From: Halocafeteria seosinensis
Lineage: Eukaryota
Direction of reading: 5' to 3'
DNA length: 64,000 bases
Assembly: GCA_001687465.1 (NCBI GenBank)
Contig: LVLI01000055.1
Span: forward strand, 1 to 64,000
Shown here: positions 6,997 to 64,000 of the stretch, in pieces
How positions within the stretch are numbered: position 1 is the stretch's first letter
Layout: every line of letters begins with the position of its first letter
The notes under the pieces: model-generated
Seen by the model: only the letters and a program-made list of their open reading frames with translations
Databases searched by the model: none
Told to the model about the DNA's origin: nothing
Position numbers and translations under genes: made by a program

Positions 6997-8424
6997 ATAT
7001 TTGCTTGAACGAGTCTATTCGGACAATAGAACTCTTGTTCGCCTCGAGAACCAACAAAACCACTGTGTAAGCAATGAATAAGGGCCCTGGCGGCCCTTAG
7101 GAGTTTTAAGAAGTGTGTACCATACAGCTCCTAATGCAGGAGCACAGGTTATTTGTAACAAGTAGCCTCGGTATTCAAAAAAAAAAAAAGTATATTGAAA
7201 TGAAGTCAATGATGTGCCACATCCTAGTAGATGATCCTACTCGCTTCCAGCTTCGCGAAGGCATCCCTACCGTATTCACTAAGCACCACACGAACCCAAG
7301 CCTTTCACTTATGGTCAGTGTGCTCAAATGATTATTCTGACATTGGTAAAGGTATATGAACTTGGAATCAGTCCTATTGGAAGTTTTGATGCGCATTCGC
7401 TTCACCCTACTGTACCACTGGTACATACAGTAGAATTTTGCGCAACCGATGCCATGGCATGAATTTGCTGCGACTTTCAGTTCCTGGGAGCTTATGCGCA
7501 CACATACGATGGTGGACATACCAATGTTGCAAACTAGCAATTAAAAGCTTGCAGAGTTTGTGTTGCGGACTGCCTAGCCCCGTGCGGACCGCTGGAATCC
7601 TGAATTCCTGGAATCGTTGGCGACCGCTCAGGTTGCGAGCCAAACTATGTGGTGTGTCTCAAACTCCATTGACCCACGCTGAGCTATGTAGATATTTCCA
7701 TATGTTTCCGCAATCTCAATAGCATAGCATACTCTATACTTTCCGTATCCTGTCTATCTGGTGTGAGGGTTTCAAGCAACAACAATTTGAAACATTAAAG
7801 GACGGAAAAGATTGTCGTGTCCTAGCACGCATTTTCTGAGGCAGTGCAACATGGTGCATAGCGGGTTCGTGCTGGGATATACAGCAGTTTACACGCTTAA
7901 ATGGTGTTGAATCAGCATCATTGTATATATATCATCGTGAATCAGGTTCATATGCCACGAAATAAGGCTGGGAACATTGACATATCTTGAGAAAAGAGGC
8001 TGGGAAACGGTAAAGAGAGTGGCTGACTTCTTGCTCAGGTAAGCACCGTTTGAAGAGCCGCTGGGTCAGTTCTCGCCATGCCATACAGTAGAACATTGTC
8101 CGGAGAACCGACTCGACGAACTCTCAGTTTGGGGGAAAGACGCACAAGAGTGTGAGGGAAACTCAGGGATACAGGCCAGTTGGCGCAACCTTTTTTGTAG
8201 TTTCTTGGCCCCTGAAGCCCCCTGTGGGGGCTAGCCAGCATGTTGGCTATGGCACTCACAAATACTTTTTGAGGTTCTCATGAGGCCCTTTGGAGCACTT
8301 TAAGGGAAAAACTACGCTGGACGCTGTTAATGAAGCTCTTGGTCGTCGTCGAAGCCGTCTGGGGATCTTGTAAATACACTGTTTTGAACTTGCTTCTGCA
8401 GAGAAATACACAAAACTCGCCGCG

Positions 8425-9878
8425 ATGGGGGCCTTTCTTGATAAACCAAAGACAGAAAAGCACACACAGGTTCAAGAGAGTGCGTCTGTACGAGCTGGTC
8501 TGACTTCCATGCAAGGATGGAGAGTCGAGCAGGAAGTAAGCTTGAACTTGCAGTTGTGGTGGAGTTCAACACAGCGCTGGCTCACTGGTACTGATATTTT
8601 TTACGCAGGATGCCCACTCATTGATACTAGAGTTACCAGACAATCCTCAGGCTGGATGGTTTGCAGTATTTGATGGCCACGGAGGCAACTTAGTGTCTGG
8701 GAAAAGGTGTGTTTTTGGCCTTGTGCTCCTGCCATCTATGGCAGACGGTTGACAAGGTTCTCATCCACTGCAGCGCGGAACGACTTCATAAGCTTATTTC
8801 AGTTGATTCACTGGTACGGTTTTACTTCAGTGTTTCTTTGAACGTGTTGTATGTGCTGAAACGCATGCGTTGTTTTTTGTGCTGGCAGGAACCTGAAACG
8901 CTGAAGCCAAAGATTCGAAATGCCTTCCTTCAGCTGGATAAAGAGTTACATGAGGACCCAAAGGTCCAGAGAGGGGAGGACCATTCCGGTACAACTGCTG
9001 TGTCATGTCTATTAACACCTCAACATATGATCTGTGCTAATTGTGGTGATTCACGGGCTATCCTTGTACGCAACCGAGAGGCGAAGCCTCTATCCTACGA
9101 CCATAAACCGTTTAATGTACGTTTTCACCCAATACTGAGCTTCCTTATTTTTGTTTCTCTTGAAAAAATGGGCTACTAACGACACAGGACAAAGAGCGAG
9201 AACGCATCTATAAAGCTGGTGGCACAGTCACCATGGGCAGAGTGAATGGTGACCTTGCAGTAAGCCGCGCGTTAGGTGACTACGTCTACAAGTTTGTGTC
9301 GGTAAGTAAACCAAATGGGGTACTTCCCAGTAATGTTGACAGCTATCGCTCACTTGTGCGCTTACAGGATTTGCCTGCGGAAGAGCAACAAGTTTCTCCC
9401 GAACCGGAGTTTGTGGTAATACCGCGAGATCCTCAACAAGACCAATTCATGGTCTTAGCATGTGACGGTATTTGGGATGTTATGAGTAATGATGAAGTTG
9501 CTAAGTGGGTGCTAGACCAAACTGAAGCTGGCTGCGACAATGTCGGGGAAGTAAGTTTCATTATTGTGCTAAGGCTCTTCGGATTCTTTAAAGAGTGAGT
9601 CGTCGTCTGTACTACAGCTAGCTGAGACCTTAGTAGATGAGTGTTTAAGTCGGGGAAGCAAGGACAATATGAGTGTTATCATTGTTGCATTTGAAGCAGC
9701 CCCTCGACCTTCGAAAGAAAAAATAGAAGAATACAAGAAACGCAAAGAGGAAGAAGCCAAACGACACGAACAAGAAGATTACGGTAATACCAATATGCAG
9801 TCCAACCCTAATCCTCCCATAGAAGTTCCTATGGGAAATATCGCTTCAGAGAATCAACATCCAGGGAACAACACTTAA
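8425..9878 (+). CDS. Protein phosphatase 2C (PPM1A/B-like), multi-exon
   Basis: [79 protein letters not shown]. Confidence 0.96.
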
Positions 9879-10070
9879 GTAGTTCTTCTGTAATGCGGCA
9901 TATGGAGTTTGTAGACAGTCCTGGTCGGCAGGGATGGCCAGCGGTACCACTCAGTGATAAATATACAGCAATGCTTGGTACTTCAGTACGTTATCTTTCT
10001 TTCCACGGCTGGTGTTAATTTATACAGGTGAAACTGCTATAGGGTAGGCGTATCATAGGATGCCGGCTTT

Positions 10071-10696
10071 CTATGCCTTCAACGCGAAGCGCCTCATGGG
10101 GAAGTTGTCCTCTTTCTTCTGCTGGCGAAGAGTCCTTTTGCTAGCTTCCTTTACAGAGAGTGCTCTTCTCATGGCACGGGTCTTCTTAGGTCTCAATTCC
10201 TTAGGGTAGTATTTGGTGTTCTTGCTCTTGAGCAACTGTCGGAGTTCTGACTTCTTCTTTTGGTTCAATACGGTCAAGACACGAGCGATATCCTTGCGTA
10301 CAGTGCCAATCCGTGCCAACTTGGAAGCAGCACCTCCGGTCACCTGGGCAATTCGGAGCTGCAAAATCGAAAGACCGACAACCCATGAAAACATGTAATA
10401 TCGCTGTAGCTGCTGCATCCATCAACTACATACAGTGTTCAATTCATTCCTGAGTTCCTCCAATTTCGACAGCAACTCAGTACGGTCCTTCCCGCGGAGT
10501 TCATACGCTTTAAGTTTAGCTGCAAAACAAGATATTACCACGTGAATACAATGACTAAAAGAGCCATGAATGCCATGTCAAATGCGTCCCGAAAAACTCA
10601 GTTGCTTTCCCCTTTTTGACCCCTCTTTCCATTCTCCACCGTCATTACGCCAACGACATGTCTACACTGGATAAAATGCCCAATGAACTTACTCAT
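10071..10696 (-). CDS. RPL35: 60S ribosomal protein L35 (uL29), 3 exons
   Basis: ATG-A|GTAAGT at 10696-10693 and intron 10692-10520, then KLKAYELRGKDRTELLSKLEELRNELNT|LRIAQVTGGAASKLARIGTVRKDIARVLTV..PKKTRAMRRAL. Confidence 0.95.
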
Positions 10697-11374
10697 TTTT
10701 CCTCGTTAATGTGTATAAAAAGCCGTGGAAAAGACACTATAGTGATCTCCTTCCTGCACCAAGTCAAGCCATACGACGGAGAAATTAGCTTCTGTACGCT
10801 TTCCTAAGCAATATTCATACGTTCCAACAGCAGAGACGTGTACAAAGAATGTATCTTATCCTACTGGTGGGTGCAAAACTTACCTCTATTGTGTATAACA
10901 CCACAATACATCCAATGATAGCAGTAGTGCCCTCTCCGGCCCCCTATAGAAAACTACAAAAAGCATGGTCCTTCCGGTGCTCCCGTAAAGCCTCCCTTGG
11001 GACCATCCCCCTGGGTTAGGGGTGTCACTCACTACAAGCTCCACAAAAGTGAACGAAAAGATTGTCTTGAAACGGCGAAGGAAGCCTGTTTCTTCAGTGG
11101 AGCTGTTTCCGAGAGCGTTGTATACAAAGTAAGTTCTTCCCGTCGTCCTGTGTGCTATCTTTTCCACGCTCCCAGTGGAGAGGAAGACGAAAAAGGTGGG
11201 AAATCTCGTGTTGGGCCGGCGTATTCGGTTCCCCCTTTAGGAGCCCCCTGAAACCCTTTTTTGGCTGGATTTCCATTCACTTGTGCATTACTGTTTTACA
11301 GGTGCATAGTCGGGCCAAGCTGAACCGAGGTTATTTCATATAGACTCATTCCGGAACCGAAAGCAAACATTACG

Positions 11375-11694
11375 ATGTCGTCTTCGGGAAAAACGCAATC
11401 GGAAGAGCATCCTCTCCAGTCCCAGGTGGTGGACCCCCTCATTGAATTCTCCAAGGATAGCGTTAAGTTGTTGAATAAATGCCATCGGCCAGATCTTAAA
11501 GGTAAGCCTTCGATAAATTGTTGAGAATGTCAAGGTGGGGACGGAAAGAAATGCCGTGCTCGATTTTTGGGTTTGCAGAGTTTCGGCAGGTTGCATTCGC
11601 GACTGGAGTGGGGCTTTTGGTGCTTGGATTCCTCGGATTCTTTGTTAAGTTGATTCACATCCCGATTAATGATATACTCGTAGGAAGTGGTTAA
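11375..11694 (+). CDS. SEC61G: Protein transport protein Sec61 gamma subunit, 2 coding exons (absent from ORF track)
   Basis: Manual splice gives [81 protein letters not shown] probable 5'UTR intron lies at 11129-11301. Confidence 0.93.
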
Positions 11695-12261
11695 GCAACT
11701 TGTAATGAAAGAAAGGCAAGGAGTCGAGTTAGCTACAACCACAACTACAGATATGATCAGCGATGTTCACGTATGAATTAGCACACGAGGTAATTGTATT
11801 CCTTGCCTCCATTTATGTCCTCGAGTGCATCCTCGTGTCATCTCTTCTGGTTGTACCATTATAGAAGCGGTGCCCCCAGAACGATATCTGGCGAATGGAA
11901 GAGGAGGTAGCAATGAACATTCACAGCCATCTCAAAACTCATACCTACTGCTACGCATGCCACATTTCCGCCTTACCTCATATGCATGCTAGATTATGCT
12001 ATACACACTGGTAACAACATGTTATTGGCCCAGTAGTCGGGCTTGAAGTTGCCCCCGGTAGGTAGACGCGCCAAAACTGGTCCAAGTTTTGCACCACCCC
12101 TCGTTTTCGGCTCGTACAAGTGATACTCTGGGATCATCGATTGTCAGGGTTAACTCATACAATCGAGTACTATTCGAGCATTCGCATCCCATTTTTCTCA
12201 CGCAGTAGATAGTGTGTATACCTTGACTGAGTGGATTTCCTGCGAGCTCCGTTACAGCGCC

Positions 12262-36951: not shown

Positions 36952-38671
36952 TTATTCATCGACGAAGAATTCTTCCAAACATTGCAATAGGGCATAGAGT
37001 TTGTTGTGTGTGTACTCTTCTACCTGCTGATTACTTTGCTCCGTGTTGGTTCCTAGTTCCACTGCGAGGGTTGCTGCTGCCTGGGCAGAACTCTGTTTCC
37101 CGGATTTGGAGAACACGGCCTCAGGGTGCTCTGGTGGGGAATCAAATTCTGTCGACGTATGGGTTTCATCATTACCCTCTTGGTCTTGATACAGATGCTT
37201 AGTCGCATAGTCGAAAAGTAGAACCGCTGCATACTTGCAACTCATCTCGAACGCAGGCTGCCATAGGTCAACTTTGGATTCTTTCTTCCCTTGGATGCTC
37301 TTGAGAACATGGGACAACACTTCCTGTAGGATGTACGTAAGGTACGTCCTCATATGGTTCCAAAGACTAGCTTTTTCAGCAAGCATGTGCGATGCGTAGC
37401 CAGACTTCTTTTCCCAGTAGACGACGTACTTGCGCACTTGTTTCTCCCCATGAGTTCGAGTTACGGGCTTCACGAGAGCCATGCGTCCGTTTTTGGCTTG
37501 GTTTTCCCGAACAGTACTTTCAATGTAGCTTTGAAGAACACTTGCCAAAAATGAACCTACATCAATCCACAGCGGTCCAAAGATATGCTTGTTCTTTGGC
37601 CCACAGAGCACTACAGGTTGCCCTTGCCCAAAGAACTCGTCATCTTCCATACTCTCCTCATGCTCAGACTTGGTAAGAGGACGTACCAGAATGGTTTCAT
37701 TGTTTAAATTCCCATGACATAATGAAACCAAACTCTTGGTGCCGGCGCTCAGGTCATCGCGCAGCGTTGCCACTAGTTCTTCAAAACGGCTAGTTTGCTC
37801 ATAGATTCTGTTGGCAAGTTTCGCTCCTTCCGACTCAGTGTTGTTGGAGAGCCTCATCTGTTCTACTTTTTCAGCGCTTTCTTTGAAATCTGACGCAATT
37901 TTGCTTAGGTTGGAATCTCCAAATGTGGTAGCTGAACTTTCTGTTCCGGAAAATTCAGCCGCGGCAATGCCATTCAGGAAAAAGTTGGCAATATATTTCG
38001 GAACATGTGTGAACGTTGTCCCGTGAGATATCGCGCCTTCATAGGTCGTGTATCGACGAGGATAATACTCAACGGCTACCGCTCCTGGAATCCCAGTCGG
38101 ATTTTCATAGTTCTTTAGCGCTGCTGCAAAGTACAGTGGCGATATTTCGGCGCTCTCCTGGTGAGGTCTCTCCTGGTTCCACGCTGAGCTTTTTGCAAAA
38201 GCATGCAATGAGTCGATTTCGTTGCATGCATCCTCAATACAGCTTGCAGAAGAATTCCACAGTTTTACAATAACTTCCTGATTTCCCAAAGATACTATAA
38301 AGGATACATGGTCTGGGCCTTCAGCCATCTGTAGCGTCATCCTACCGCTGCTAAGCTGAGTTCCATACCCACCGCTTGCATATCTATTCACTTACGGGTT
38401 TCACCATAGCATGGTCTAATTCCGCTTCTAAACTTTCCGTTGAATCCTCAAATTTTCCATAGAGGTCCTTAATAAGCTGAGAGCGCCCCGTCACATAGCC
38501 CTCGGGCGTGCTCTCCGTTTGCTCCTCACTAATCGCGTGTTTGATGACTTTTACCACATCTCCCTTCCCTGGAGGGTACTGAATGGTCTTTAATAAAGCT
38601 AGCGTCCCTTGATCACTCCCGTCAGTTCCTCGTATAGTTGGGATGACCAACGGGAAAGACTTGGCAGACAT
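36952..38671 (-). CDS. Atypical kinase-fold (APH / methylthioribose kinase-like) protein, probably degenerate
   Basis: VIVKLW, SLCHGNLNNETILV and FGPLWIDVGSFLA resemble the APH/MTR-kinase HGDL and GP..FD.G motifs. Intron ~38393-38329. Confidence 0.5.
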
Positions 38672-40588
38672 GGCGAAATTTGAATTCAAATACCCGACTT
38701 CACCCACAGATGGAATCTAAGGCATAAACAGAGCCCAATTCTTAACATCCAGTTATAGAAGAGATTCACACACGGTGCTTCTTCGAATACCGTAGTGCCG
38801 CGTATCAATACACGGTCTTGGTGCAAGCCTAAGCAACCTGTGGCGTCATCCTGTTTCAAATGCGAGAGACATGTACAGTACAGACACACACACTGTACAC
38901 CACTGCCAGTTTGCCGTACGCACTCTTAGGCACATCATCATTTATCATATAGATTATGACAGTCACTTGAAGTCCGAATCGCGTATGTTGCTGTCGACTG
39001 TCTCGAATAATCGATCGACTGACTTTGAATACCGTTTTCGCACAACTCTGTTCGCCGCAAGGTTTAGGGTGTCCGGTGATTAACTTGTCCTGGCCGCTTT
39101 GCGATGAATTTGACCGGACGAATTGTTTTCAATTTCATTTCTTGCTCTATGTCTTTTGGATCTACATATATTTCGGAGGGGTTTCAATCTGGCGCCTAGC
39201 GCACACTCTTGGGGGATTGCAACTTTCCGATACACTTGATGCATATCGTTCTTGAGTGGAACACGAGCAGCACGTCAAGAGGTTACAGGTTATTAAGTGA
39301 CTGAGTATTTGTACCAGTGCTAGTGTTGGTCGTGGCGGGGGCTGCTGGGTGCGTTGGACTTCCATGTTTTGATGTATTGCTCCTGCCGGAAGACGTCTAC
39401 GCTACGCCGTGTGAGGAGTGAACCGTAGCAGTTCTGCTTCTTCACATACCGTGGCCGCTATTTGTTGCATGTACATATTGCATTGTTTCCTCTGCTTATG
39501 TTCTTCATGTATCGACGGACTTACAACCACGGCAGGGCCAATTCTTTGAATAATTTTCATTTTGAAGTCGTTGTAACGGAGTACCGGTAAACGCAATAGC
39601 TGTGAATACCGCTACGGCACGTTTTGACAGCGTGCACGTCTAAATAATTAAGCTGGACAGCTACCAGAGTGAATGATAGGCACAATGTAGATAAGCAGTG
39701 AGTGGAAGTCCCGAATTCCAGACTCAGACTACAATGTACTGTATTCCATTCGGAAACCTCCATGTTCCATACATGTATGATGTTGGTGCCATTTCCACGC
39801 TTGGCTTTCAGAGGTACTTGGATTCAGACACTCGCCGCATCCATCCGACTTCGCGGGCTGGCTAACCTACTCTACTAGTTTGTGGACGGCTAAACTAATA
39901 AACATACATCCGGGAACCCATCCCAAGATCCTTAGGGACAAGCTCCGCAAGCAATGGGAACTTTTTTCTGCTTTCCTTTCACGGACCAAGGCGAGAATAG
40001 TGGATAACCTGCTTCGTATCCGGGTATAGAACACTGTTGTGGAGGAATATGCTAACGCTGGTTTTCAGTTGGCCCATAGCGCCCATTAGATCAGAACTAC
40101 GCGTCAGCTTTGGCTGGTGCACTGCAGTTCCTTAAACAACAGAGTTTTTCCGATTACTCATCCCGTATGATGTCCACGACCATTATACTTGCAGCATCCA
40201 ATAGAGTTTATTCCAAAGGAAGATACCCCGCGATGAAATGACTGTGGTACCCACTAGAATGAGGAGCTATAGAGTCAGATCAGCCACCTCGAATCTTCCG
40301 CATATTCCTTCGCATGTTCGTTCTGCACGATTCAAAGGACGCACGCGACTCCGTAGAAGCATCGGCTAATTTCAGGTATTCCCCATTAGCAGGAAAGCTG
40401 TTTGTATTGATACCGTCTCACACCTTGAGAAATTGTATGTCTTGCTCGCTTGTGTTTTTCGGAAGCGAGAGGAAATTGAATACCGGTACATAACGATTGA
40501 CACTGGGATACAAAGAGGCTGCGCAGGAAAAGACATAGAAAAGACGGGCTGTATAGGTTAAATTCAGCGACTTTTGGGGACGAAAACG

Positions 40589-41839
40589 ATGTTTTTAAAG
40601 CATTTGCCAGAACTCTTTCGAGGGGCTGTCTTCGTCCTCTCTACGGCCTCCATGCTTCTCTTGATTCGATTGATCGGGGAAGTCTTTGGAGATCATATTT
40701 TCTTCTTCTTGCCATGGATGTTTCTGCTTCAGACGATCTGCTTGCTCCTATTATTCACCTTCAGAAACTTGAGAAGCAAGGTTGAACTGGATCCGATTCT
40801 CGATCATGCACCTTGGAAGAGCCGAGTGATCCTGATAATGTCTGCTTCGCTGACACTGAATGCGGCGGGGGTCTTCACAACATCAAAGTACATATCTGGA
40901 CCTCTGCAAACGATTCTGGGCATGTCTCCTCTTATTTTCGCTCCGCTCTTTGACTATCTGTTCTTAAAAGCCCAAATTACATGGAAGCAGATGTCAGGAG
41001 TTCTTATCTGCTTGGCAGGTGTGACAGTGTCGCTGGTAACTCGCGGTCTGGATGGGAAGGAGAGTACCAATGTCCTGGCAGTCGTAATCCAGATATTAGC
41101 CTTGGCTATCATGCCAGGGCTCAGCATACTCAAAGAGGTATGGTTCGTTCCACGGCCGCAGTGGCATCGAGCTTCTGGGAGGGCACCAAATATCGAATGG
41201 AACGTGCTGTTTTACTGTTTCTTTCAAATACCGTGGCACTTCTCGTTCCTCGTTTTCTACGCAAGTGTTGGGATGCCGAAATTCGGAGATATCGGATCCA
41301 ATTTCCACAGTGGTGCCAAATGCTTTTTCGAAAGGACAGGAGGTGCCTCTAGTGAAAACTGTTCGGACGTTTGGTGGGTTATAACCGTTCTCGGAGTGGT
41401 CACAGTGGTTCAAATCACCTCCTCGTTTTATGTTGCAAAGGAGGACAGCGGCGCGTACAGTATTGTTTTGCAGTCTGCTGCCCCATTCTTAGCTGACCTC
41501 GTATTTGGCAGCAAAAAGATTATGGGACAATATGAAGAAAACGTCAGTCCCTGGATTTGGCTGTCCTTGGGACTCACAGTTATTGGATGTGGAATCTACC
41601 GATGGGGAAGCACCGATCCACTAGAGAAAGTAAATCAGGACCCTACTTGGTTTCACAAATTTGTGTTGGGCGCTCCCGACTCATCACTCAAATCAGCACC
41701 TTTGGTGAAGCGCGACCACCTTGCAAGTGAACATAGTAGTATTAATCCCCCGAATGACAACATGGAGAACGAGCGGGATCCCGAAGATGGCGATTGCAAT
41801 CCTTTGCTCTCAGTTTCAGGATACAAAGAGGAATCATGA
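40589..41839 (+). CDS. Drug/metabolite transporter superfamily protein, CRT/CLT-like, intronless
   Basis: About 10 TM helices. YISGPLQTIL..FDYLFLKAQIT..QMSGVLICLAGV (DMT), plus a Cys-pair loop GAKCFF..SENCSD as in CRT-like proteins. Confidence 0.7.
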   Translation: MFLKHLPELFRGAVFVLSTASMLLLIRLIGEVFGDHIFFFLPWMFLLQTICLLLLFTFRNLRSKVELDPILDHAPWKSRVILIMSASLTLNAAGVFTTSKYISGPLQTILGMSPLIFAPLFDYLFLKAQITWKQMSGVLICLAGVTVSLVTRGLDGKESTNVLAVVIQILALAIMPGLSILKEVWFVPRPQWHRASGRAPNIEWNVLFYCFFQIPWHFSFLVFYASVGMPKFGDIGSNFHSGAKCFFERTGGASSENCSDVWWVITVLGVVTVVQITSSFYVAKEDSGAYSIVLQSAAPFLADLVFGSKKIMGQYEENVSPWIWLSLGLTVIGCGIYRWGSTDPLEKVNQDPTWFHKFVLGAPDSSLKSAPLVKRDHLASEHSSINPPNDNMENERDPEDGDCNPLLSVSGYKEES

Positions 41840-43240
41840 TACGCGTACAATGATGCTGCTAGTACAAGCATTTGCAGTTTCGAATGCAGAAATCTTTGTC
41901 CCAATATAATTCCTGTTTCAAACATAACCAAAATTACACAAGCAATGGAGGGAATCCAGCCATGCCAGTAGCAGTGCTGCTGTAACGAATATAGTCAACG
42001 TGGATTTCAGCCTAATAATAGTGCTACCATCCACTCACGTAGAATAACTTATCCCGACCTCCACGCTGAGCTCACTCAAGGATAGAGAGTGGGCGGCCTC
42101 GGCCGCCACCTCCATATTTCTGTGTACTGGAATTCGGCACGTTGCCTTGCCAACCAAACGGCCAACGTTCTCACGCCTACGAAAGCTACTGGAACAAACC
42201 GAAGCTACGAAAACACCTGGGCAAGATGTTGCAGAGAGTAGCTACACGGCCTCTGAAAGGGACGCTGAACCCACAGCAGAAAGCGTTACTGAGAGCATGC
42301 CGAGCGGACGGAGCAGCAGCAGCAGAAACACTTGGCTAAGCAGCATGGCTATACGCAGCAGCACCTTGAAAAGGATTTACACTAACCGACCCTGAGTACA
42401 TGGTAGCACTGCGCCTACACCTAGGGCTCCCCCAAACTAACCTTTTTACGGGGCCATCCAGTGAATGCTGTGGAGATCGACGAACCGCTGCACCACGCAC
42501 TGGGGTGCGGCAAAGCAGGGAACGCCACGCAAAGGATCCGTCGTCATGACGGGATAGCAGTGGAACTGGAGAACTACATCTGCATGAGTCAAATGCCAGG
42601 AGAGAGAAAGGTGCTCGTAGATCCGTGAAATGAAGGAGAGGCGAGGCCATTAATGGACCTGGTAGCAAAGGGCCCAACGAGCACACTGTACGTCGATTAG
42701 CTTTCCTGGCAATTCTCTTGAGGAACTTGATGGCGTCTTCCCGAAGCCGCCCGTCGCCTCTATCGCGGAGGGGATAATTTCCGTGTGGTAGTCCCTCAGG
42801 TGCCCGTGTATTTTGTCCGCTTAATCTTCTCCGCTTTTGCCGCGATGTTGAGGGGCTTCCTGCTGTCCTGGCGATCTCCCGCTGGGGAACAAGGGAGATG
42901 CGGAACTTCCGCAAGCTGATGACGGCCAAACTGTCAGTCACGTTGATGCGCCACAACGTGAAGATGTTGGACCGATTGCGGGTAGGGTTTACCTCTCATA
43001 CGGCGTAGCGTAGGCTGTAGCAGACACGTCTTCCGGTAGGAGCAATACCACTACACATCTTTGAACTTGAACTTCGGCGGGAAGTAGGCACAGTATAGTC
43101 GAAAAGATGTCGTAACACACGAAATGTACTTGATAAACCCTACGTGTGTTGCTGTATAAGATTGAGTCAATAAGATCATCATCAACATCTTGAGTATTTT
43201 CTAAAAGGACTACCTTTAGACCAAAACCACATCGCCCGTC

Positions 43241-44152: not shown

Positions 44153-45018
44153 ATTTAGTGGTCCTGTATGCCTTGCGAAAAAAGGCAAATTTTTTATGTG
44201 TGGCAGCAGCATAGTTCCAGAAGAATGCGAAAGCAAGTAACCTATCAAAACATTCACGTTACAGAAACAATGTCTGAGCCGCCACTATTTCTCCGGGTAG
44301 GAGCAATACAAACAGACGCCACCACCCATGAACATGGATGCAGGCCCACGCGGATATCCAGTGACTTGTTATCTCCCCTTGATTCCCTCATCAAACTTGC
44401 AAGTAGACAAGTTTACCTTACCGGCTCTGGATATGCTGTTCAGCAACCACTTCTTATCCGGAGTGATATACAACCTGCTGCACGTTGCGACGTTGCGAGC
44501 CTCACTTCCTTGAGTTCAAATGGTATTTTTACAATTTTATCGGGACCCTCCCTGCCTTGCTGCTATTGCTAGAACCACTCTTTCACCTCCTCTATTATCC
44601 TTGTTGTTCACGACTCTCGATGCCAGTACAGCCAGGTAGCCTGCAATTCTAAACTTTCTAAAGTACTTGTACAGAGGAGTTATCTTCCTGCGGAAAAAGG
44701 GAGTATAAGACCTGCGCCACTCTGCAATACAATGGCTTGGTTCCGTAATCAATGAGTGTTGGTGACCGCTGGCTGTAAGGAAATGTTTCAAATGATTCCA
44801 CATGGGATCTTCACGATTGCTGCTACTGTTTGAAAACAGTGAGCACAACAGTTTCGATTCGTTTTGGTTTGTTGGTGTCCAAAGCATGTTTGTTGTTGAA
44901 GATCCATGTAATAGTGGCAAGAAAAAAGAAGAGGACTACCTTTTTTTTCTTTCTCTTTTCGTTACTGTATTTCCCCCAAGATTAGTGTAGAAGTCATCCA
45001 AGGATACCCTCCCAAACT

Positions 45019-48815: not shown

Positions 48816-50853
48816 TTAGTTAGAAACACCCAATTTCTTTTCGGCCGCCGTGAGAGCATCCGCGAAAATGTTCATGCAGGTGTCCAGATCATCTTCCTCG
48901 ATAATTAGAGGGGGTAACATTCTCATGACAGCTCCACCACGTCCTCCTTTCTCAAGAATGAGGCCGCGGCGCAGACACTCTTCTTGGAGTTTGTTTGCAA
49001 GAGCAGAGTGAGGCACGGGGTTCCCAAGATGATCATGAGTGGCTGCAACAATACAAGCGAAAAAAATAGTAAGAGATGAGACTACCTGCCCAAACGAATG
49101 AGAAATAACAACGTACTGTTATCCACGATTTCAATTCCTTGGATAAGTCCACGACCGCGGACGTCTCCGATGCTTTTGTGTGTCTTCTGCAACTCCGTCA
49201 TGAATTTGGTCATTTGTTCTCCACGCTTGGCTGAGTAGTCCCATAGCTTATGTTCCTTCATATATTCCAAACTTGCGCTTCCAGTCGCGAATGCCAAACC
49301 ATTGCCACGGAAAGTTCCAGTGTGCGCAGCAGGAGCCCACTCGTTCAAGTGCTCTTGGAAGGCGAACACCGACATTGGAAGGGAACCACCAACCGCCTTG
49401 GACATACAGACGACATCAGGCACGATTCCTCCATGCTCGTACGCAAAGAAGTCACCAGAGCGGCAGAAACCAGCTTGTACTTCATCGACAACAAGCGGGA
49501 TGTTGTGCTCCTTGGTTATTCTTCTAAGTTCCTTCAAGGCGTAGGCACTCATTGGCTGCACTCCGCCTTCACCTTGGATGGCTTCCATTACGACACACGC
49601 TGGTTTAGGGATACCAGATTCATCGTCTGTTAGACAAGTTTCGATGTACCGCATCACAGCCTTCTCTCCTTCTTCAGCGTCCATTCCGAATCTGCATGAT
49701 AGATGAAAACTCGTCGTTGAAAGATGTACAGCTCGTGGTTTCAAAAAAACGCTAACATACGGCTGTCTGTAAGGATAGGGGTAGGGGAAGAAGTGAACAT
49801 CAGTCATAAGACCTTGTACAGCATTCTTGGCACCGAGATTGCCCATCATTGCCAAGGGAGCTTGTCCGTGACCGTGATATCCTCCATGGAACGAAATCAC
49901 TGAGCGGCGTCCTGTGGCAATTTTGCACATTTTGACAGCGGCATCCAAACAATCAGTTCCAGCGGGAGACGGGAAGTGTAGACGAGTCAATTCCTTGGGA
50001 AGAACACTTGCCAAGTCAGTCATGAATTTATCCTTCCACGGAGTGGCCATGTCAAGATGTTGCAACGGTGCCTTACTGTCCAAGTACTGCATTTTCAACC
50101 GACGAGACGCGAAGGTAATTTTCACCGCAAAATATCCAACGAGTAACAAAGCGAAATACAGTTCACACTTACGCTTCTAATGGCATCATGGAGAACTGGG
50201 TGGTTGTGGCCCAAAGCTAGAGTTCCAGCCACTCCCAAGCAGTCATAGTACTGCTTTCCATCGGTATCTGTGAGGATGATACCTTCGGCTTTCTCAATAG
50301 CAAAGGGGAACTTTCGCACATATCCACGTGCATTCGATTCACGGAGGGCCGAGTTCTGTATGGAATAGAATCGACAAAAGTGACTTCCTGTGGGCGAGAA
50401 AACTACAAAAAAGGCCTGGGTTATTCCGTTCCCCAGAACACCCCTGCCCGCGGAACTGAAGTGAAATTTCAGAACACAAGGGGCGGTTCCATAAGAGCTT
50501 CGGAACAGGTGCTTCAAAATCACTGATTTTGAGCCCTTCATGAGCCACACAGAGCAGAGAACGAAACTAGAGAAAGTGATCTAACGCATGCATACCTTGA
50601 GAATTTCGTTCTGAGAAAGGAAAGGGCACTTGCCGGCATTTCCGTCGACGGGAGACTTTTGCGTCACATGGGGTCCAAAGGCGGATACACCATGCTTTTC
50701 TTCCAATGCGTCCAAGTTCTTGGTCAAGTAGCCGACAGGACCTTTGTTGTTGACTGTGGAAGCAGCTCGACGAGCAAGAGAAGGCCCTTGCTGGCGAGAA
50801 GTGCTCATTAAAGAGCGTGAAACACTACGGGTCGCCATGGAAGCAGCTGCCAT
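48816..50853 (-). CDS. ectB: Diaminobutyrate-2-oxoglutarate transaminase (EctB function; Dat-type class III PLP aminotransferase), 5 exons, mitochondrial-type presequence
   Basis: Introns 50595-50356, 50172-50087, 49760-49692 and 49116-49043 splice in frame. Motifs RESNARGY, GTLALGHNHP, FHGGYHG, EAIQGEGG, VDEVQAGFCRSG, SKAVGG (PLP Lys), HTGTFRGN, DVRGRGL, GLILEKGGR..RMLPPL. Confidence 0.9.
50356..50595 (-). other. Candidate structured RNA element in ectB intron 1 (240 nt)
   Basis: Four internal hairpins plus a closing stem found by eye. Carries the TTTTTGTAGTTTTC motif. Confidence 0.5.
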
Positions 50854-51293
50854 TTTCACTGTTCAAAATTGAACGATTCGCGCAGTAAAACAGACAAGCG
50901 ATTCAAAGCTTGGAATCAGTTGAAGGACAATTTTTTCTTTCGGAGAAGTTGACTTTGTGTCAAACACCTGAACTGGCTCAATAATGGAATCTACGTCACT
51001 AGGCTGTTCCCGCGTTTGTGAAGTTGGAAATGGGGTGGACCGTCCCCCACGGGGCCCCACCGTGGACGCGAAATTGAAATACTCAGCATTGGAGAATTCA
51101 CTCGTTTCCTTTTGTTAAGAGCTAAAAGCTGCAATCAGGAGACAGGGTCGCTGCTCTTTGAACGACATACAGTTGATTGGTAACATGATGTCTCAGTATC
51201 AAAGAAGGCAAACGGAGGATGCTGTAGACAGTACTGAGACGTATTCATTGCTTTGTTGGTGCCCTGTGGAAAACAGCGACTAATATACGTGCA

Positions 51294-51309
51294 TTAATGA
51301 CGTCATTAA
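51294..51309. promoter_or_regulatory. Perfect 16-bp palindrome with CRE core in the divergent ectB/ask promoter
   Basis: TTAATGACGTCATTAA. A G-box palindrome GCCACGTGGC follows at 51358-51367. Confidence 0.5.
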
Positions 51310-51693
51310 CACGCCATATAGGTTGTACTATTGGAGGCTGCATGTCGAGTCATCACGGCCACGTGGCACACCGTCTTCCGCCTTATTTCATTGACTGCTG
51401 CCAGAATGCCCGGAACTATCCATACAGACGATACAAAAATGTACCCGACATGGCTACAACGCTTCTGGTAGATTACAGACAAAAGGACACCACGCAGTTG
51501 CCAATTGCTGACTCGCCCGGACTCCGGACTCCGGAGCCACCTTCACAAGTGAAGTGATTGACGAATCCTCTGACACAAACTCAAATTCTCAGGGATTGTT
51601 GAGGTCCGGATTTTGAACGTTTATCGTATTCACACTGTGTTTTATCGTCCTATATTTGTTGCGTACATATACAGCAACTCTTATAACAGAAAA

Positions 51694-53716
51694 ATGTTGT
51701 CCAGTATTGCCCGTAATACTTTAAAAACCAGCAGATTCCTCTCTGCTCGGCCGTTTTCACAGGCTGCTGCCTCCGATCCCATCCTCCAGTCCACCGACAG
51801 CGCTCAGTATCCTCGCGAGACCCTTGCCAGAAAAGTAATGAAGTTCGGAGGATCTTCTGTTGGTAATGCCGAGGCTTTATATCGCGTTGCTGAGATTCTA
51901 CGCAACGAGAAAGAGGAAGGAAACGAGTAAGTTGAAGGCTCTGAGGTGTTCTCCCAAAAACTACAAAAAGGGAAACCCGGGGGGAACAGGCAAGGTGTTC
52001 CGACTTGTGAGGGATATTTTTTTGAAATACCTCAGCTATAGCCGTCATTTTATAAGGGTTGCAATGGCGATACGAAGCTGGAAGTGCGATGCTACGATGC
52101 AAAAATGACTTGTCTATTCGGTGACGGTGTTTGAATCGCGTCTTAGGGGCTCGGAAAGGGGCAAAGACGATCTGGATACGTCTTAAACCTAGATGCGGAA
52201 GGCCGGTGCAACCTAGGGAGCATATGGTTCTTAGGCCTTTTACAAGTGTTTGATGGCTCTATATTCACGCTATTTACTCGTCTATGTTTGATGTTTTTGT
52301 GTACAGGCTTGTGGCTGTATTGAGTGCCATGTATGGCGTCACTGATCGCCTTGTAAACTCGGTAAAATATGCCGAACGAGGTGAAATGGACCCCGTCGGG
52401 AAGAACAGCGATGAGATCAAACTCTACCATGAGCGCACCATTGACTTAATGCTGGGTGACACCCCTTGGGCATCAAATGCCTGCAAGGAATATCTCCATG
52501 ACACCATGCACGTAAGTAGTAATCCAGTGGAAGTAGAGCGACCGTTAGTGAAGTGAAGTCGGAAAACCGGGGTCAGGTTCAGGGGGAGTTAAAGGGGGAA
52601 AGCATTGAATTGTGTCAGACCCGGAGATGGGGATAGTGTTGTTAACTGACTATTTACCAAGGCAACTTGCACAAGCCATCTAGCAGACATCTAACCTGTT
52701 TTTGAATATTGTTGAACTTGCAGCAATGGTATGACCAAGTGCTCAACAACATTGCCGAGAAACAATCGTTCAATGACTACGACATGGATCGTGTCAGCTC
52801 TATTGGCGAGAGACTGAGCAACTTTGTAATGAGTGCTTACTTGCGCAGCAGAGGAACTGGAAGCCACTTTGTCTCGGCTGACCAGCTAATTGTCACCTGC
52901 GGCACCCACGGTAATGCTGAACCCGATCTTCAAGCCACCAGAGCACGTGTGGCCCAGCATTTGGAACCCTTGTTACAAGACTCCGTCCCATGCGTTACTG
53001 GTTTCTTTGGAGCTGGACCCAATGGCAAGGTTACTACCTTCGGACGTGGTGGATCTGACCTAACCGCTGCCGTTCTGGCCAACACATTACGCGACGTCGG
53101 TGAAATGATTCTCTGGAAAGTGGAATGTGAAAAGAGAGACGATGGGTGGCTGAAGGAATGGAAGCCAGGTTTTACTGGTGTCGTTCATGATGCTGATGTG
53201 GACTATACTATCCCCGAGCTGTCTTATGACGACGCAGCTCAGCTCGCCGCTTTCGGAAAGAAAGTGCTCCACCCGTCTACTGTGTTTCCCGCCATCGAGA
53301 AGGACATTCCCGTTTATGTGAAAAATACAATCGACCCTAATCACCCCGGTACAAAGATCCACAGTGATGTCGACACCGACGTTCAGCCGGTTTCATCGAT
53401 TACGAAAGCTGAGTTCAACTTCTGTGAACAAAAGCACGAGATACAAATGGGTGATTTCGATTGGGACAACTTGGGCGTTGGACCCGATAACGCCGGCGTA
53501 GTCGTGCTCGTTGGAAACGGCGTCTACCGGAGTGTTGAGCTCCGAAAACAAATCTCGGCCGTTCTTGATGACAATAACATCAAGAAACACTTTCCTGTGC
53601 GAGTGAATGGAAGTGAAAATAACTTCTGTGTTGTGGTACCTAAATCGGAGATGAAGACTGCCGTCAAATTGCTACATAAGCATATCATTGGATGGAGTGA
53701 ATCCGACACTGAATAA
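51694..53716 (+). CDS. ask: Aspartokinase, 3 exons, mitochondrial-type presequence
   Basis: Introns 51927-52306 and 52512-52723 splice in frame. Motifs VMKFGGSSV, VAVLSAM.GVTD, SIGERLS, TTFGRGGSDLTA, LAAFGKKVLHP, VKNT, plus an ACT-like C-terminus. Confidence 0.93.
51927..52306 (+). other. Candidate structured RNA element in ask intron 1 (380 nt)
   Basis: Multiple G-U-containing helices, competing pairings, and motifs shared with asd intron 1. Confidence 0.55.
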
Positions 53717-58162: not shown

Positions 58163-61100
58163 ATGGAGCCCTCAACGGCGACGTCCTCCTCCAAGGAGGA
58201 GGAGGATAATGGCCCTCATGCTCCTTCAGAGGAGGACCAAGGACAACATGAAGCAACTGGTGGTGAAGGGAGTAGCAGCGCCACAGGTGGTGAGCAGGAG
58301 GAGGGGAAGGAGGAGGAGGAAGAAGTGGATGCAGGTCGAGAAACGGCGGCCAACTTGCAGCAAGTTAACGCAGAAGCTGCATTTGACTTTTTAGATCAGC
58401 AAGTGGAGAAAGGGGCGATTTCTTCCGAGCAGTACGTTGCCAACCAATCTCTGACACAATGTAGCCTTTCTTTGTTGGGTTGCACTGAATCTTTTATATA
58501 TATATTTTTTTTTTCGTGTGTACCAATGACAGAGCGGAGGAACTACGCAGCCGATTCAAAGAGTTGCAACATACAGTATCCGAAACGGCCGAACAGGAGC
58601 AGAATAATGCTCAAGAGCTAGAGCGCCTTAGACGCGTCACTAGGGAAGAACAAAGAACACTGGACACCACGGTACGCTCGAAGGAACGCCTTACAGATGC
58701 GGTGGAACAACTTGCACAAGAAAAAGACGAGGTCAGATGAACTATGATGGGAAAACGTCTACGTGACACTGTCCTCAACCAATTACTTCCCTAATGCAGG
58801 CTGCTCAAGAACTCGAAGAAGCAGAGAATGAGGATAGCACTTTACACTATGAACATAGCGAGCTCAAACGAAAACAGGAAGAGCTGAAGGGACAAGTGGA
58901 GGCTGTTCGTCAAGCCAACAAGGACTTAGTAGAGCCCGAATTAGAATCATTGATGGAAGAAATCAAACAAGGAAAGGAAGAGCTATCCAAATTAAAGAAC
59001 TGGACAGAAAATGCGGAGAAAGAAGAGAAAGAAAAGCGCTCCAAAGTGGAACAACTCCTTGTCATGAAGGAAGAAGCAGCTGAAAGCCTGAGTATGATGC
59101 GGCAAGAATGGACAAGAGTAAAGAATGAGCCTGAAAGAGTAAAGTAAGTTGTTTACGTGTGGATGTTAAGAATGGGAGCGATTGCGATGCTTGTCGATGC
59201 CCTCCATTTCTCTACAGCAAACAAGCGCAGAGCGTGCAGACTGCTGTCCGGGAAGTCAGTACCGAAGCACAGAAGCTGAACAACAAGATCGCTGATGTTG
59301 ATAATGAACTTTCACGACATATAGACAAGCGCTCTGAGGCAAGTAGGTTGCATTCACAGTTGCAATCATCAATCGACAAACACCGGACAGATGTGGAGGA
59401 GTACCGTGCCAATGTGGCTGAACTAGATAAGAGTATCAAGATCGAAGAGCAGGAACACAAAGATCTAACTGAAAGGAAAATGACATTGCAAGCGGAGCTC
59501 AAGCACGCCGCGAACAGTTTACGAGATGCTCAATCTTCCTTATCTTCCATGGAGTCTTCGTACGAACGAAGCAAGAAGGAACTGAAGCGCCGGATGGATT
59601 TAGCAAACGCGGAGAAGGCGAAGGTTCCTGCTGCTGAAAATGACGTTGTAGATGCGACACATGCGCTGCGGGCCTTGGAGAGGGAACATGAAAGTATACA
59701 GAACCAACGGGGCAAACTCCGTAAAGATGTGGACGTGTTGGTGCATAAAGTATTGGTTCAAGAAGCTGGCGAAAGCAAGCTTGCGGAAAAGTTGCAGGAA
59801 ACGTTAGATGTTGAAGCATCGCTAGAGCAAGAGAAGACGAATTGGAACAAGGAGGAACAATTGGCGTACAAGCAGATAAGTGCCTTGAAAGCACAGCGAG
59901 ATCTGAAAAATCGCGAACTCTCTAGAACACAGCAGAAGATCAAAAGTAGTGAGGAAGAGCAACTCATGAAAAATTTGCAACTTACAGATCTCACAAAGCA
60001 AGCTAATGAAACTATCAGTAAGCTGAAGAACTACTCAAAACTATACGAAACGGTGAAGAATGAGAGAAACTCTTACGTGAACGCCATACAAGCCTCGTCA
60101 CAGGCATTAGCTGAGATGAAGGAGCGGATTAAAATATTACAGAATGAAGTGGAAATTTTACAAAATGAAAGCATTGCAAAAGATAAAGCGCTGTCGAAGG
60201 AACGGCTCGCTCATGCAGACGCCTCAGTTCAGAGAGATGCATTGCGGTTTGAGACCAACAAATCACACGCTACTTACCGGGAAAAGCAAAGATCTGTTGA
60301 ACAGCAGATCGTGCGGATTGATAGGTTAAACTCTGTTATATCGAACTTGGAGAAGACGATGCTTCAGCTGAAGAAGCAATACGAAAAGGCTGTGGAGGAT
60401 AGGAATCACACCGGCATACAGCTGATAGATAGAAATGATGAACTGTGCATCCTCTATGAAAAGTCGAATATTCATGAGGATACGATGCGTAAAGGAAATG
60501 AATCGTTAGCAACATTGGACAGAGAGATACAAGAGCTTCAAATCAGGGAGAAGGATCTCGAACGGGAGCTTGACGTCGTCCGAGAAAAGTTCCCGAAGAT
60601 GCCACAGTTGGCGGAGAGGGTGCTGTCGTTACAAAAAGAACTTGCTTCTGAACGGAAATTCACAGAGAAACTGTCGTCAGAATTGGAAAACCCTAGCAAC
60701 CACCGTAACTGGCAACCATTGGAAGGATTCGATCCTGATTCCGATAGGTTAAGTGAACAGGTTTCGGCGTTGGAACAACGGCTAAACGAAAAGAGAGAAA
60801 AGCTCCTAGAACGGGAACTGGTTTTGGAAGAGTTAAACTCCTTGAGTGAGAAGCTGAACGATAAAGCTGTAGAAGGCAAAGGTGCCACATCAGAGCGAGT
60901 TGATCAAGTCCATTCCTTGCAAGCAAAATTGCAGAATGTAACCAAAAAGATGATGGCATTGGTTTCAGAGTTATCCATGTACCAGGCTACGAGTATGAAG
61001 CTCGAGGAAGAAAAGACCGAGCGCCAGAAACAAGTCGAAGAAGCCGAAGCTGCGTTACAGCGGGGTGAAGTACCTTCAGAGGAGGCTGTGCAAGCACTGC

Positions 61101-61351
61101 AACGCAAGGAGCGTTATCAAGAGGTACAGCGGTCCCGCAAAGAGCGGTTGAAAGAGTTGGAGAGGCAGAAGGAGATGCCAGCCTACGCAACGCGGACCAC
61201 CGCGGAGCAGCGCCCGAATGCGTACGTGCCTGAAGGCGAAGCCATTGCTGTACCGAAACCTTACGGAAAACATGCTCCATTCAAGCCCCAGAAGCCCGGT
61301 GCCACTATGCGAAACATTCGAAAGCCACAACAGAAAGAAATTGAAGTTTAA
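58163..61351 (+). CDS. CCDC146: CCDC146/MBO2-like flagellar coiled-coil protein, multi-exon
   Basis: Long coiled coil with GIQLIDRNDELCILYEKSN, KMMALVSELSMYQA and C-terminal RTTAEQRPNAYVP..PKPYGKHAPFKP. Confidence 0.85.
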
Positions 61352-61529
61352 TCTGGCCTTGGTCTTGTTTTAGTTATGCGCCGCACACTGAAGGCAAACA
61401 ATCGAACAGCAGTGGATCGCTGATGAGCTACACACATGGCTCAAAACCAAGCAATATGTGCATTGGAAATAACTCCAACGAATGTGTCTGTAATGCCCAT
61501 GCCACAGGAAAATTCGGTGTTGGCTTAGG

Positions 61530-62578
61530 CTAAGGATTTACCTCTTCTGCAGCTGTTCCCACAAGTTCCCCCGACGTTGTGCAGTCGCCCGAGCCCACTG
61601 CACACGGAACACATACAGTCAGTACTAGTAGATTCACCAAATAATACCTACGAATACGTACTTCCCCAGCTACCTGTTCAATGAGTTTGGGATCCACCCC
61701 TTCGGTATTCCATTGATTCAATGAACCTAACGCGAAGGAATGCCATTGCTCATAGTCAACGAAATTTTGCCTTTTTTCTTGCGCCTCCTTGCTTGGTGTT
61801 TCAGGAGGCTCATGAAAGCTACACTCGGAAAGATCATAAGTATGGTTCTCATGAGAGACTTCACTGCTGCGGTCAGTTATACGACTCGGTTGTTCTTGCG
61901 TATGGAGCGGTTTCTGCTCGTCAACTGCTCCCGATAAACATAGATTGAAAGCGCGACTCCACAAGTCGACAGAGCGTTGTCCGGGGCACTGCAGATAGCA
62001 AACGCCAACTTTGGGGTCGTACTGCTGGGCACCAAACCCATTATGAGGAGACGTACCTGTAAGATGACCGCACCCATGCGGCATCCCAAAATAAACATAC
62101 GATATTCGCGTTCTTCCAAAAGTGTCTCAATGCTTTGACAGCGGATTAAGCCTTTTGACGAAAGTCCAGACGATAAAAACTCCAGAGCCGCTTCGTCACT
62201 GTACTCAATGTTGTCCTCATCTTGGTCGTCATCATTTTGAGTGGCGGACGATTCTACCATCGTGGAAGCGGGACCCCATCGAAATGTATCTCTTGTCAAA
62301 ATACACCACGTTTTCATCCACTGTCGAGGATTTTCGTTTTGAATAGCCTCCTGTGCAGCTTCCACGGGCGCTTCGTACGTATGGCGTCCCCGGAGCCGTA
62401 AATACCCTTCCAAGAGTTTCGGCCCCCCTCCATCCGTCATCCCTGCGGCTGCCATCGATGCTGTGGTAGAGGTCTGTGGCGTCTGCTGACTGGAAAAATT
62501 CGACCAAACATCCCGATTACGCTCGGAAACTACATGAGAGGCAGCCGGAGTGCCTGGGATCTGGTTCATCATGCTCAT
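61530..62578 (-). CDS. PH-domain-like protein, multi-exon
   Basis: LLEGYLRLRG..QWMKTWCILT..GLIRCQSIE..MFILG..WSRAF. Boundaries are approximate. Confidence 0.6.
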
Positions 62579-62879
62579 GGAGCTGGCATGGAAGCTACCT
62601 GCTGGTATGCCGTCGCACTCATTCCTTCAACCATCACACATAATACACACACGAACGAGTGTAATGGCACGCTGATTTCGCTTCCTTCATAATTCAATGA
62701 ACGAACTTCAACGACTCCCGGCTTCAACTTCACGAAGGTCGCCATTCATTTTCGGTATACACAAGAGTGAATTTCAGGATTTGTCATGCTTGGACAAGGT
62801 AGAATACATCCGTCATCATAAACGATCAATTTTTCTTCGGTCGAATTTTGTGCTTCATCATTGCAAGAAGCGAACAAAC

Positions 62880-64000
62880 ATGCTGGGTAGAAACATGAAT
62901 CAATTCCGTAAAGCAGCTGCTCCTTTTACAAAAAGAGCTGCTCCATTGACTCAGACTGCTGGGACTGGAGTGCGCCTGTTTACCAGCTCGTCACCGCTGA
63001 TGAAGGCTGACTTTAAGAGTGGATCTAGCAAACCCAATGTGGCAATTGCTGGCGCGACAGGCGCTGTCGGCCAGGAATTCCTGCGTATTCTAGAGCAACG
63101 CAACTTTCCCATGAACGATGTAAGTATCCAATCCTGCTCTGCATACTTTTTTGTACTGCTATACCGTGAGGGTTGCATGGGAAAGGCTCCCGAAATGGCG
63201 TGGGAGCGCCTCGAGAACAGCCTGAAGTGGGATATTCCTGTGGTGTCTCTGTTCACAGGGCCACCACAGGGGTCCTTACCCTTTTTGTTGTTTTCCCCAA
63301 GGGGACGTTCTAGGGAGCTAGTTTGCCCTGTTCCGTCGGCGGGATTTGAGTGTGAAGTGTGAAGCTGAACCCGAAGCACGGGCTAGCTTCGCCGTCACCA
63401 CCGGCGGAGTCATGCCGTATTTTTTACCTTGAGAATTGAACAAGTTATTTGATTCATTTCCCTGTTTCCTTCGCAGCTCAAATTACTCGCCAGTTCCCGC
63501 AGTAAAGGCAAAAAGATGGAGTATGCCGGCAACGAAATCACGATCGAGGAACTGACGGAAGATAGCTTCAAAGATGTAGATATCGCCTTGTTCAGTTGTG
63601 GCGGGAGCCAAAGCAAAAAGTAAGCGTCATAACATCCTTTAAACCGTCACATACGCTTCTATCATTGTTTGCTCGCCTTTATTGGGAACGCAGATTTGCT
63701 TCTCCAGCTGTAAAGGATGGCTGCGTGGTTGTAGACAACAGCAGCGCCTTCAGAATGGACCCCAACACACCTCTGGTGGTTCCAGAAGTGAATCCATCTG
63801 CTGTAAAGGCACATAAGGGTGTGATAGCCAACCCTAACTGCTCTACCATTATCATGGTCGTGCCTATGTGGCCGCTTCACCAAGCTGCTGGTATCCAGCG
63901 GGCGGTTATATCCACCTACCAAGCTGCTTCCGGATCAGGTGATCAAGCCATGCGCGAGCTTGAGGAACAGGCGCGACAATGGGCCCGTGGAGAAACTGAC
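62880..64000 (+). CDS. asd: Aspartate-semialdehyde dehydrogenase, mitochondrial-type presequence, truncated by window end
   Basis: Introns 63120-63476 and 63620-63693. Motifs VAIAGATGAVGQE, LLASSRSKGK, DIALFS, VVDNSSAFRM..PLVVPEVN, IANPNCSTI (catalytic Cys), STYQAASGSG. Confidence 0.96.
63120..63476 (+). other. Candidate structured RNA element in asd intron 1 (357 nt)
   Basis: Multiple helices with motifs shared with the ask and ectB introns. Confidence 0.55.

Follow-up and report, generated by a model that had tools for sequence, protein, structure and literature searches.

A conserved short word near gene starts in Halocafeteria seosinensis, most likely a cis-regulatory DNA element

Five copies of a short word in non-coding DNA

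The window analysed here, 64 kb of eukaryotic DNA from the halophilic protist Halocafeteria seosinensis (positions 1 to 64,000 of contig LVLI01000055.1), contains genes of the ectoine pathway and five copies of a word of 12-15 bases, AAAACTACAAAAA. All five are non-coding and occur in either orientation close to where six genes begin; three of these genes belong to the ectoine pathway, and each copy is 220-460 nucleotides (nt) from a start codon. They align to the consensus (R)AAAAC(T/A)ACAAAAA(A)GG, with G/C-rich bases on either side. Three copies are A-rich on the plus strand and two on the minus strand; relative to the nearest gene, four are U-rich and one is A-rich. The motif is a real, discrete and conserved short word. 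A first-pass annotation of this DNA had placed five copies here and none in coding sequence, and both statements hold (0/5 copies are in coding sequence).

Copy 1 (CAAGAAACTACAAAAAAGG, 8189-8207, A-rich on the minus strand) is located 220 nt upstream of the start codon of a PP2C gene (plus strand, ATG at 8426) and U-rich when read in that gene's sense. It occupies positions 151-169 of a 363-nt intron predicted from sequence within PP2C's 5' untranslated region (8039-8401, plus strand; cag, GTAAGC...TTCTGCAG, ag). An intron upstream of PP2C had already been proposed by the first-pass annotation. Its joint is absent among the joints listed for this region (15 of 44), and the depth of the spliced X2 contigs agrees with the prediction. 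In the bin 8005-8671, this depth corresponds to 232 nt covered (397.9 x 667 / 1145.1), compared with 231 nt expected if 8039-8401 and 8536-8608 are skipped, which fits the predicted intron.

Copy 2 (TAGAAAACTACAAAAAGCA, 10947-10965, plus strand) is located between the divergent genes RPL35 (minus strand) and Sec61-gamma (plus strand), 414 nt upstream of the Sec61-gamma ATG and about 55 nt past the last RNA-supported base of RPL35. The sequence TATAG directly follows this copy on the RPL35 sense strand. Since no CAG acceptor is present in the sequence between copy 2 and the next RPL35 exon, copy 2 does not lie within an intron ending at that exon. Judged from bin depths, the region of about 10893-11330 is apparently free of RNA contigs, which does not show that copy 2 is untranscribed.

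The other three copies are located in the first introns of ectB, ask and asd, where the first-pass annotation had put them, and the joints in the X2-X4 contigs, with GT..AG ends, confirm this placement. Copy 3 (GAGAAAACTACAAAAAAGG, 50396-50414, plus strand) occupies positions 182-200 of the 240-nt ectB intron 1 (50356-50595, minus strand, joint 50355/50596), with the 3' splice site 41 nt away, and reads U-rich in the ectB sense. This intron is in phase 0 and follows an exon of 87 codons (ATG at 50856). Copy 4 (CCAAAAACTACAAAAAGGG, 51954-51972, plus strand) occupies positions 28-46 of the 380-nt ask intron 1 (51927-52306, plus strand, joint 51926/52307) and is A-rich in the ask sense, the sole copy so oriented. 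Copy 5, a variant (GGGAAAACAACAAAAAGGG, 63279-63297, A-rich on the minus strand), occupies positions 160-178 of the 357-nt asd intron 1 (63120-63476, plus strand, joint 63119/63477), which follows an exon of 80 codons (ATG at 62880), and is U-rich in the asd sense.

All motif counts refer to the window, and the weight-matrix scan covered both of its strands (128 kb). Exact copies of the 15-mer AGAAAACTACAAAAA are present at 10948-10962 and 50397-50411, and 13 nt of it recur at 51957-51969, as the first-pass annotation had noted. Two-mismatch copies are present at 8192-8206 and 63282-63296, both on the minus strand. Five matches to AGAAAACTACAAAAA with at most two mismatches were thus found against 0.26 expected, a number reached in 0/100 shuffles. 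The 12-mer AAACTACAAAAA occurs exactly four times (8192 on the minus strand, 10951, 50400 and 51958), and the site at 63282 on the minus strand differs by one change, T to A. AAACTACAAAAA is the sole dispersed four-copy 12-mer of the window that is not of low complexity. Its expected count is 0.011-0.023 under Markov models of orders 0-5, and the comparison with a Markov background proposed in the first-pass annotation, made here within the window, puts the word above the low-complexity background. To allow for the word having been chosen post hoc, we counted order-3 Markov simulations in which any 12-mer had at least four dispersed copies, which was the case in 2/100 and 5/400 simulations. 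In a position weight matrix (PWM) built from the five sites, copies 1 to 5 score 26.6, 24.9, 28.9, 27.6 and 26.5 bits (range 24.9-28.9), and the next best place in the window scores 13.8. This gap indicates that the copies form a discrete class and not the upper tail of a low-complexity continuum.

Another 12-mer, AGCTCAGCGTGG, occurs three times, each on the minus strand (7674-7685, 38179-38190 and 42061-42072), with unrelated flanks. About 1.6 such 12-mers per window are expected by chance, and its recurrence may mean nothing.

Gene map, introns and transcript contigs

The gene map of the window is based on Pfam domains on open frames and on the splice joints of contigs from three runs (X2-X4), which are spliced; the contigs of a fourth run (X1) are DNA-like and collinear with the window. 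The published assembly of H. seosinensis comprises 38.8 Mb. The G+C content of the window is 46-51%, and that of the genome is 46.8% in the available part of the assembly preprint (10.64898/2026.06.25.734631). From the left end, the map comprises a FAD-binding gene (2-1435, minus strand), an aldehyde dehydrogenase gene (about 4674-6950, minus strand), the PP2C gene, named from its Pfam PP2C domains, RPL35 (Ribosomal_L29 family, last RNA-supported base at about 10891, with a loose contig end at 10755) and Sec61-gamma (ATG at 11376), whose name is our reading of the open reading frame (ORF), with no family match behind it. A (CA)n microsatellite (6977-6998) and an A13 run (7177-7189) are located just upstream of the aldehyde dehydrogenase gene. 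Further along lie ectB (minus strand), ask (plus strand), ectA (minus strand) and ectC (plus strand), and beyond ectC an ankyrin/TPR/MYND gene (minus strand), CFAP58 (plus strand), an unknown gene (minus strand) and asd (plus strand). The ectoine cluster published for H. seosinensis has the same gene order, with asd three genes past ectC, in the part of the report available (PMC4987115).

The first exons of ectB (87 codons), ask (start at 51694) and asd (80 codons) encode N-terminal extensions before the enzyme domains. These extensions agree with the mitochondrial targeting signals reported for these three proteins in the accessible text of PMC4987115. In each of the three genes, the long intron that carries the motif directly follows the exon encoding the extension.

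In the two regions for which joints were listed, 15 of 44 and 15 of 19 joints were given, yielding 30 listed introns. All 30 of these segments are skipped by X2-X4 contigs and have GT..AG ends, and all 30 acceptors end in CAG. Their lengths are bimodal, with 24 of the 30 measuring 58-86 nt and the other six 173-464 nt, and each of the six long ones is the first or second intron of its gene. Of the six long RNA-supported introns, three carry the motif, and the 24 short introns have no copy. The longest listed intron, the 464-nt first intron of the aldehyde dehydrogenase gene (6468-6931), has no copy. A role of the word as an acceptor mimic was considered and rejected, since the real acceptors are CAG (30/30) and the word has TAG, or TTG in the asd variant.

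Several further observations concern the same DNA. An RNA-like X3 contig runs unbroken from ectB exon 1 through all of the intergenic DNA and reaches the end of ask exon 1 (50596-51927), which suggests either an additional transcript or an overlap of the divergent transcripts at their 5' ends. Contigs differ by allelic 10-nt indels at 51045 and 51491. An exact 13-mer, TACCTTGAGAATT, is shared by the ectB exon 1/intron 1 junction (50593-50605) and asd intron 1 (63425-63437); on the minus strand it resembles a donor site (AAG, GTA), and it is not collinear with the motif. Imperfect inverted repeats at 39364-39427 and 42983-43058 are complementary over 42 nt at 81% and over 31 nt at 84%, and enclose about 3.6 kb with an ORF for a CRT-like transporter (40562-41836). 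A third related arm is present at 44290-44310. The pair at 39364-43058 may be an inverted duplication, or the terminal inverted repeats that bound a DNA transposon.

Flanking sequence, RNA structure and alternative explanations

When the five sites are aligned over 230 nt, the mean column identity is 45%, and the core alone is invariant. Among same-orientation comparisons of the 200-nt flanks, 0/20 beat their shuffles, the lowest value being 34/200. Among opposite-orientation comparisons, 1/20 beat all 200 shuffles, and this similarity is the 13-mer TACCTTGAGAATT of the ectB junction and the asd intron. No second box is shared, as no 7- or 8-mer is present in at least four of the five flanks, and of 6-mers common to four of the five there are four (two reverse-complement pairs), with 2.2 expected from shuffles and a shuffle maximum of 10. 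An imperfect inverted copy of the motif (11/13) is located at 52287-52299 in ask intron 1, in the T-rich stretch before the 3' splice site. At the four sites other than ask, no terminal inverted repeat pairs or direct duplications were found, and the search for target-site duplications and terminal inverted repeats around the copies, as suggested in the first-pass annotation, thus gave no consistent pair. The unrelated flanks argue against an introner, a miniature inverted-repeat transposable element (MITE) or any recent common insertion, and neutral descent in such flanks cannot explain four intact 12-mers.

The first-pass annotation had also described the copies as unpaired, each abutting a hairpin, in hairpin-rich segments. 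These structural claims are not sustained by folding. Ten 139-nt windows around the copies gave z-scores of -1.98 to +1.08 against dinucleotide shuffles. Of the seven long introns folded whole, asd intron 1 folds better than its shuffles (z = -3.86), and the other six range from -0.46 to +1.72. Asd intron 1 contains a hairpin with 16-nt arms at 63237-63270. The motif's mean probability of being unpaired reaches 0.74 in both ectB and ask and drops to 0.44 in the PP2C intron and 0.24 in the asd intron, and one of the 17 perfect GC-rich hairpins of the window is within 80 nt of a copy. Neither the better folding nor the constant pairing state of a structured RNA was therefore found. Rfam matched no family in the window at the gathering threshold or at E up to 5, and a tRNA scan found none. 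A search of eight regions for C/D boxes, using the usual box patterns, gave no candidate; H/ACA RNAs were covered by Rfam only. With no C/D candidate, no Rfam match and an inconstant polarity, the copies do not resemble intron-hosted small nucleolar RNAs. Terminator-like sites are as frequent as in shuffles (15 against 15.1 and 8 against 7.3), and two of the five copies, those in asd and ask, are flagged by them.

Chance recurrence of an A-rich, low-complexity word is hardly credible. The word is indeed A-rich, and a four-copy 12-mer turns up in 7/500 simulated windows taken family-wise. However, the identity extends to 13 nt among three copies and to 15 nt between two, the fifth is one base off, all five lie in non-coding 5' regions and the PWM scores are bimodal. 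Another explanation is that a mobile element (MITE, introner-like or other) lengthened first introns, and that the word is its remnant or one of its conserved ends, the part recognised by a transposase. Its occurrence in either orientation and in long introns would fit such an origin, and exact identity over 12-15 nt suggests common descent, being unusually tight for a factor site. The 11/13 inverted copy near the other end of ask intron 1 and the about 19% repeats, many of them unclassified, given in the available part of the assembly preprint (10.64898/2026.06.25.734631) point in the same direction. Introners and MITE-derived introns of Micromonas, Aureococcus, dinoflagellates and others likewise place a repeat in introns, in either orientation, and make introns far above the genome norm. 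They are, however, alignable over their full length, bring splice sites with them or create them, and are marked by terminal repeats as well as target-site duplications, whereas the copies here have 13-19 nt in common and start at varying places, 28, 151, 160 and 182 nt from the 5' splice site. The copies are not alignable along a whole element in any of the 20 same-orientation flank comparisons, they have no second box in common, and the four sites other than ask show neither terminal inverted repeats nor direct duplications. The inverted copy in ask lies within a pre-acceptor T-rich stretch, where such words arise easily, and one copy of the word is outside the shown introns. Furthermore, a single X1 contig spans 48500-56387 with uniform depth at 95% likeness, and no extra copies are stacked on the ectB and ask introns. 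We consider a mobile-element relic, which the first-pass annotation had offered as one option, to be unlikely.

Readings at the RNA level encounter different difficulties. The word may be a U-rich element (CCUUUUUGUAGUUUUC) bound by an RNA-binding protein in 5'-proximal pre-mRNA, for example in defining or regulating long first introns. Read in the direction of the nearest gene, four of the five copies are U-rich; long 5' introns, counting the predicted one, hold four copies and the 24 short introns hold none; and the motif is mostly unpaired in ectB and ask. On the other hand, the ask copy has the opposite polarity, and copy 2 is past the last RNA-supported RPL35 base with no CAG acceptor before the next exon. 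The position in the intron is variable, folding predicts the motif to be paired in asd and half paired in PP2C, the exact 12-nt word exceeds the usual site length of an RNA recognition motif (RRM), and the word does not mimic an acceptor. Such an element is a somewhat doubtful candidate, although it deserves slightly more weight than the mobile element. The Sm-like site proposed earlier is not supported. The Sm site of spliceosomal small nuclear RNAs (snRNAs) shares with the U-rich reading a U run followed by G in a single-stranded stretch beside stems. Its consensus is R-A-U-run-G-R with four to six U, that is, a purine and A before the U run and a purine after G, whereas all five copies read C-U5-6-G-U. 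No snRNA was found by Rfam, and the copies lie within introns of protein-coding genes in both polarities, with an inconstant strand relative to the host gene. Alternatively, small RNA genes missing from the annotation may be lodged between genes and in long introns, with the word as their promoter or terminator box and a structured body that differs from gene to gene. These differing RNA bodies would account for the variable GC-rich flanks, no dependence on host-gene orientation would be expected, the U-rich reading has a short stem before the T run, and two of the five sites are flagged as terminator-like. However, such sites are no more frequent in the window than in shuffles, the flanks apart from asd fold like shuffles, and neither Rfam nor the tRNA and C/D-box searches returned a match, so that we regard this box as improbable. 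Still harder to uphold is the idea that the A-rich copy of the ask intron pairs in trans with the U-rich copy of the ectB intron and so couples the processing of these divergent neighbours. As RNAs, the two copies are perfectly complementary over 13 nt, they are 1558 nt apart in adjacent genes of one pathway, and both are predicted to be mostly unpaired. Nevertheless, the other three copies have no such partner and a 13-bp A-U-rich duplex is weak; nor is the motif consistently unpaired, as the complementary loops suggested in the first-pass annotation would demand.

A putative protein-binding element and the ectoine genes

A DNA element bound by a protein is the best account of a core that stays intact amid unrelated flanks and is found close to gene starts in both orientations. 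We consider that the five copies may well be binding sites on double-stranded DNA for one sequence-specific protein, forming an orientation-independent regulatory element near gene starts, although this remains a tentative reading of the sequence. An orientation-independent DNA-binding site was among the options of the first-pass annotation, and it is the one that the evidence favours, including the copy between divergent genes. The word is over-represented against the background composition, its core is conserved while the flanks are unrelated, and it occupies start-proximal non-coding DNA in either orientation, as is usual in cis-regulatory sites. Copy 2 lies in a bidirectional promoter region, just upstream of TATAG on the RPL35 sense strand. 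The absence of an RNA-level signature, with variable intron position and pairing state and no Rfam match, also counts for a DNA site. In the mechanism we propose, the core would be kept by selection on the word itself. Its reader would be a DNA-binding protein, either a transcription factor or a general promoter-organising factor, and this protein would raise or tune the transcription of the adjacent genes. The word would act near transcription starts as a promoter element or a first-intron enhancer, and within the ectoine pathway it may mark salt-responsive genes.

By description, the word resembles the yeast Rap1 site of ribosomal-protein promoters and the vertebrate ZNF143/Staf site with its ACTACA extension. 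Both are non-palindromic words of 12-15 bp, near-invariant, used in either orientation among unrelated flanks, and located near the transcription starts of a subset of genes including a ribosomal-protein gene. In contrast to these sites, the copies do not fit the ACTAYRNNNCCCR pattern, having G instead of C after the A run, four of the five lie downstream of the start in first introns, and the binding protein is putative. The signals of intron-mediated enhancement in plants (TTNGATYTG-type) are also short words in 5'-proximal introns, a few hundred nt from the start. They have no sequence relation to the word, however, and here one copy is outside the shown introns and one has reversed polarity. 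In literature searches, the word itself matched only primers and unrelated sequences among the papers listed, and searches on cis-regulation, promoter motifs and introns of Halocafeteria gave no description of it. The 'promoter motifs' in the available part of the assembly preprint are those of endogenous viruses, a different subject.

Several points weigh against a protein-binding element. Binding is deduced from the sequence of a single 64-kb window. Four identical 12-mers are tighter than most collections of transcription-factor sites, so that common descent or recognition through base pairing may also account for them, and the U-rich sense of four of the five copies is what an RNA element would show. 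Since long first introns are nearly the only sizeable non-coding DNA here, proximity to starts is partly forced. A metagenome scan with ask exon 3 returned two weak, unrelated loci, L001 (38%) and L002 (57% over 21 residues), and no close relative. Furthermore, ectA, ectC and the aldehyde dehydrogenase gene have no motif, so that no simple pathway-wide or expression-wide rule applies. The agreement with expression described below is also slender, comprising four genes with fold changes of 1.3 and 1.8 and discordant methods for ectB (PMC4987115, as far as available).

The PWM scan finds the motif in ectB, ask and asd and gives no copy for ectA or ectC. According to the accessible text of PMC4987115, ectB and ask are up at high salt, ectA is unchanged and ectC is repressed. 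The fold changes given there are small, and for ectB the three methods used disagreed. That text reports no EctR or MarR-type regulator for the cluster and leaves the difference between ectB/ask and ectA/ectC unexplained. The two genes of this comparison that carry the motif are thus up and the two without it are not, a match that we take as a lead and not as a result. In PMC4987115, the strongest salt induction is that of ectD, a gene located on another contig. A bolder interpretation is that the word is a salt-linked enhancer, carried in first introns that were gained after the transfer of bacterial ectB and ask into a halophilic protist. It would place the acquired genes, along with the native asd and the gene for the PP2C phosphatase, under a single regulatory circuit of the host, with ectA and ectC left outside it. 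We hold this scenario to be improbable, at about the same level as a mobile-element origin.

Almost nothing is known about transcriptional control in bicosoecids and halophilic protists. Judged from this window, a new cis-regulatory DNA word is the most likely interpretation. Should the word turn out to stand at thousands of genes as a general promoter or intron signal, its value would be that of an ordinary, though useful, annotation feature. Being common to ectB, ask and asd, the word offers a directly testable handle on the unexplained salt response and is relevant to the question of how eukaryotic regulation comes to govern genes of bacterial origin. If the salt-linked circuit is true, it would be a concrete case of the domestication of horizontally acquired genes through intron-borne regulatory DNA.

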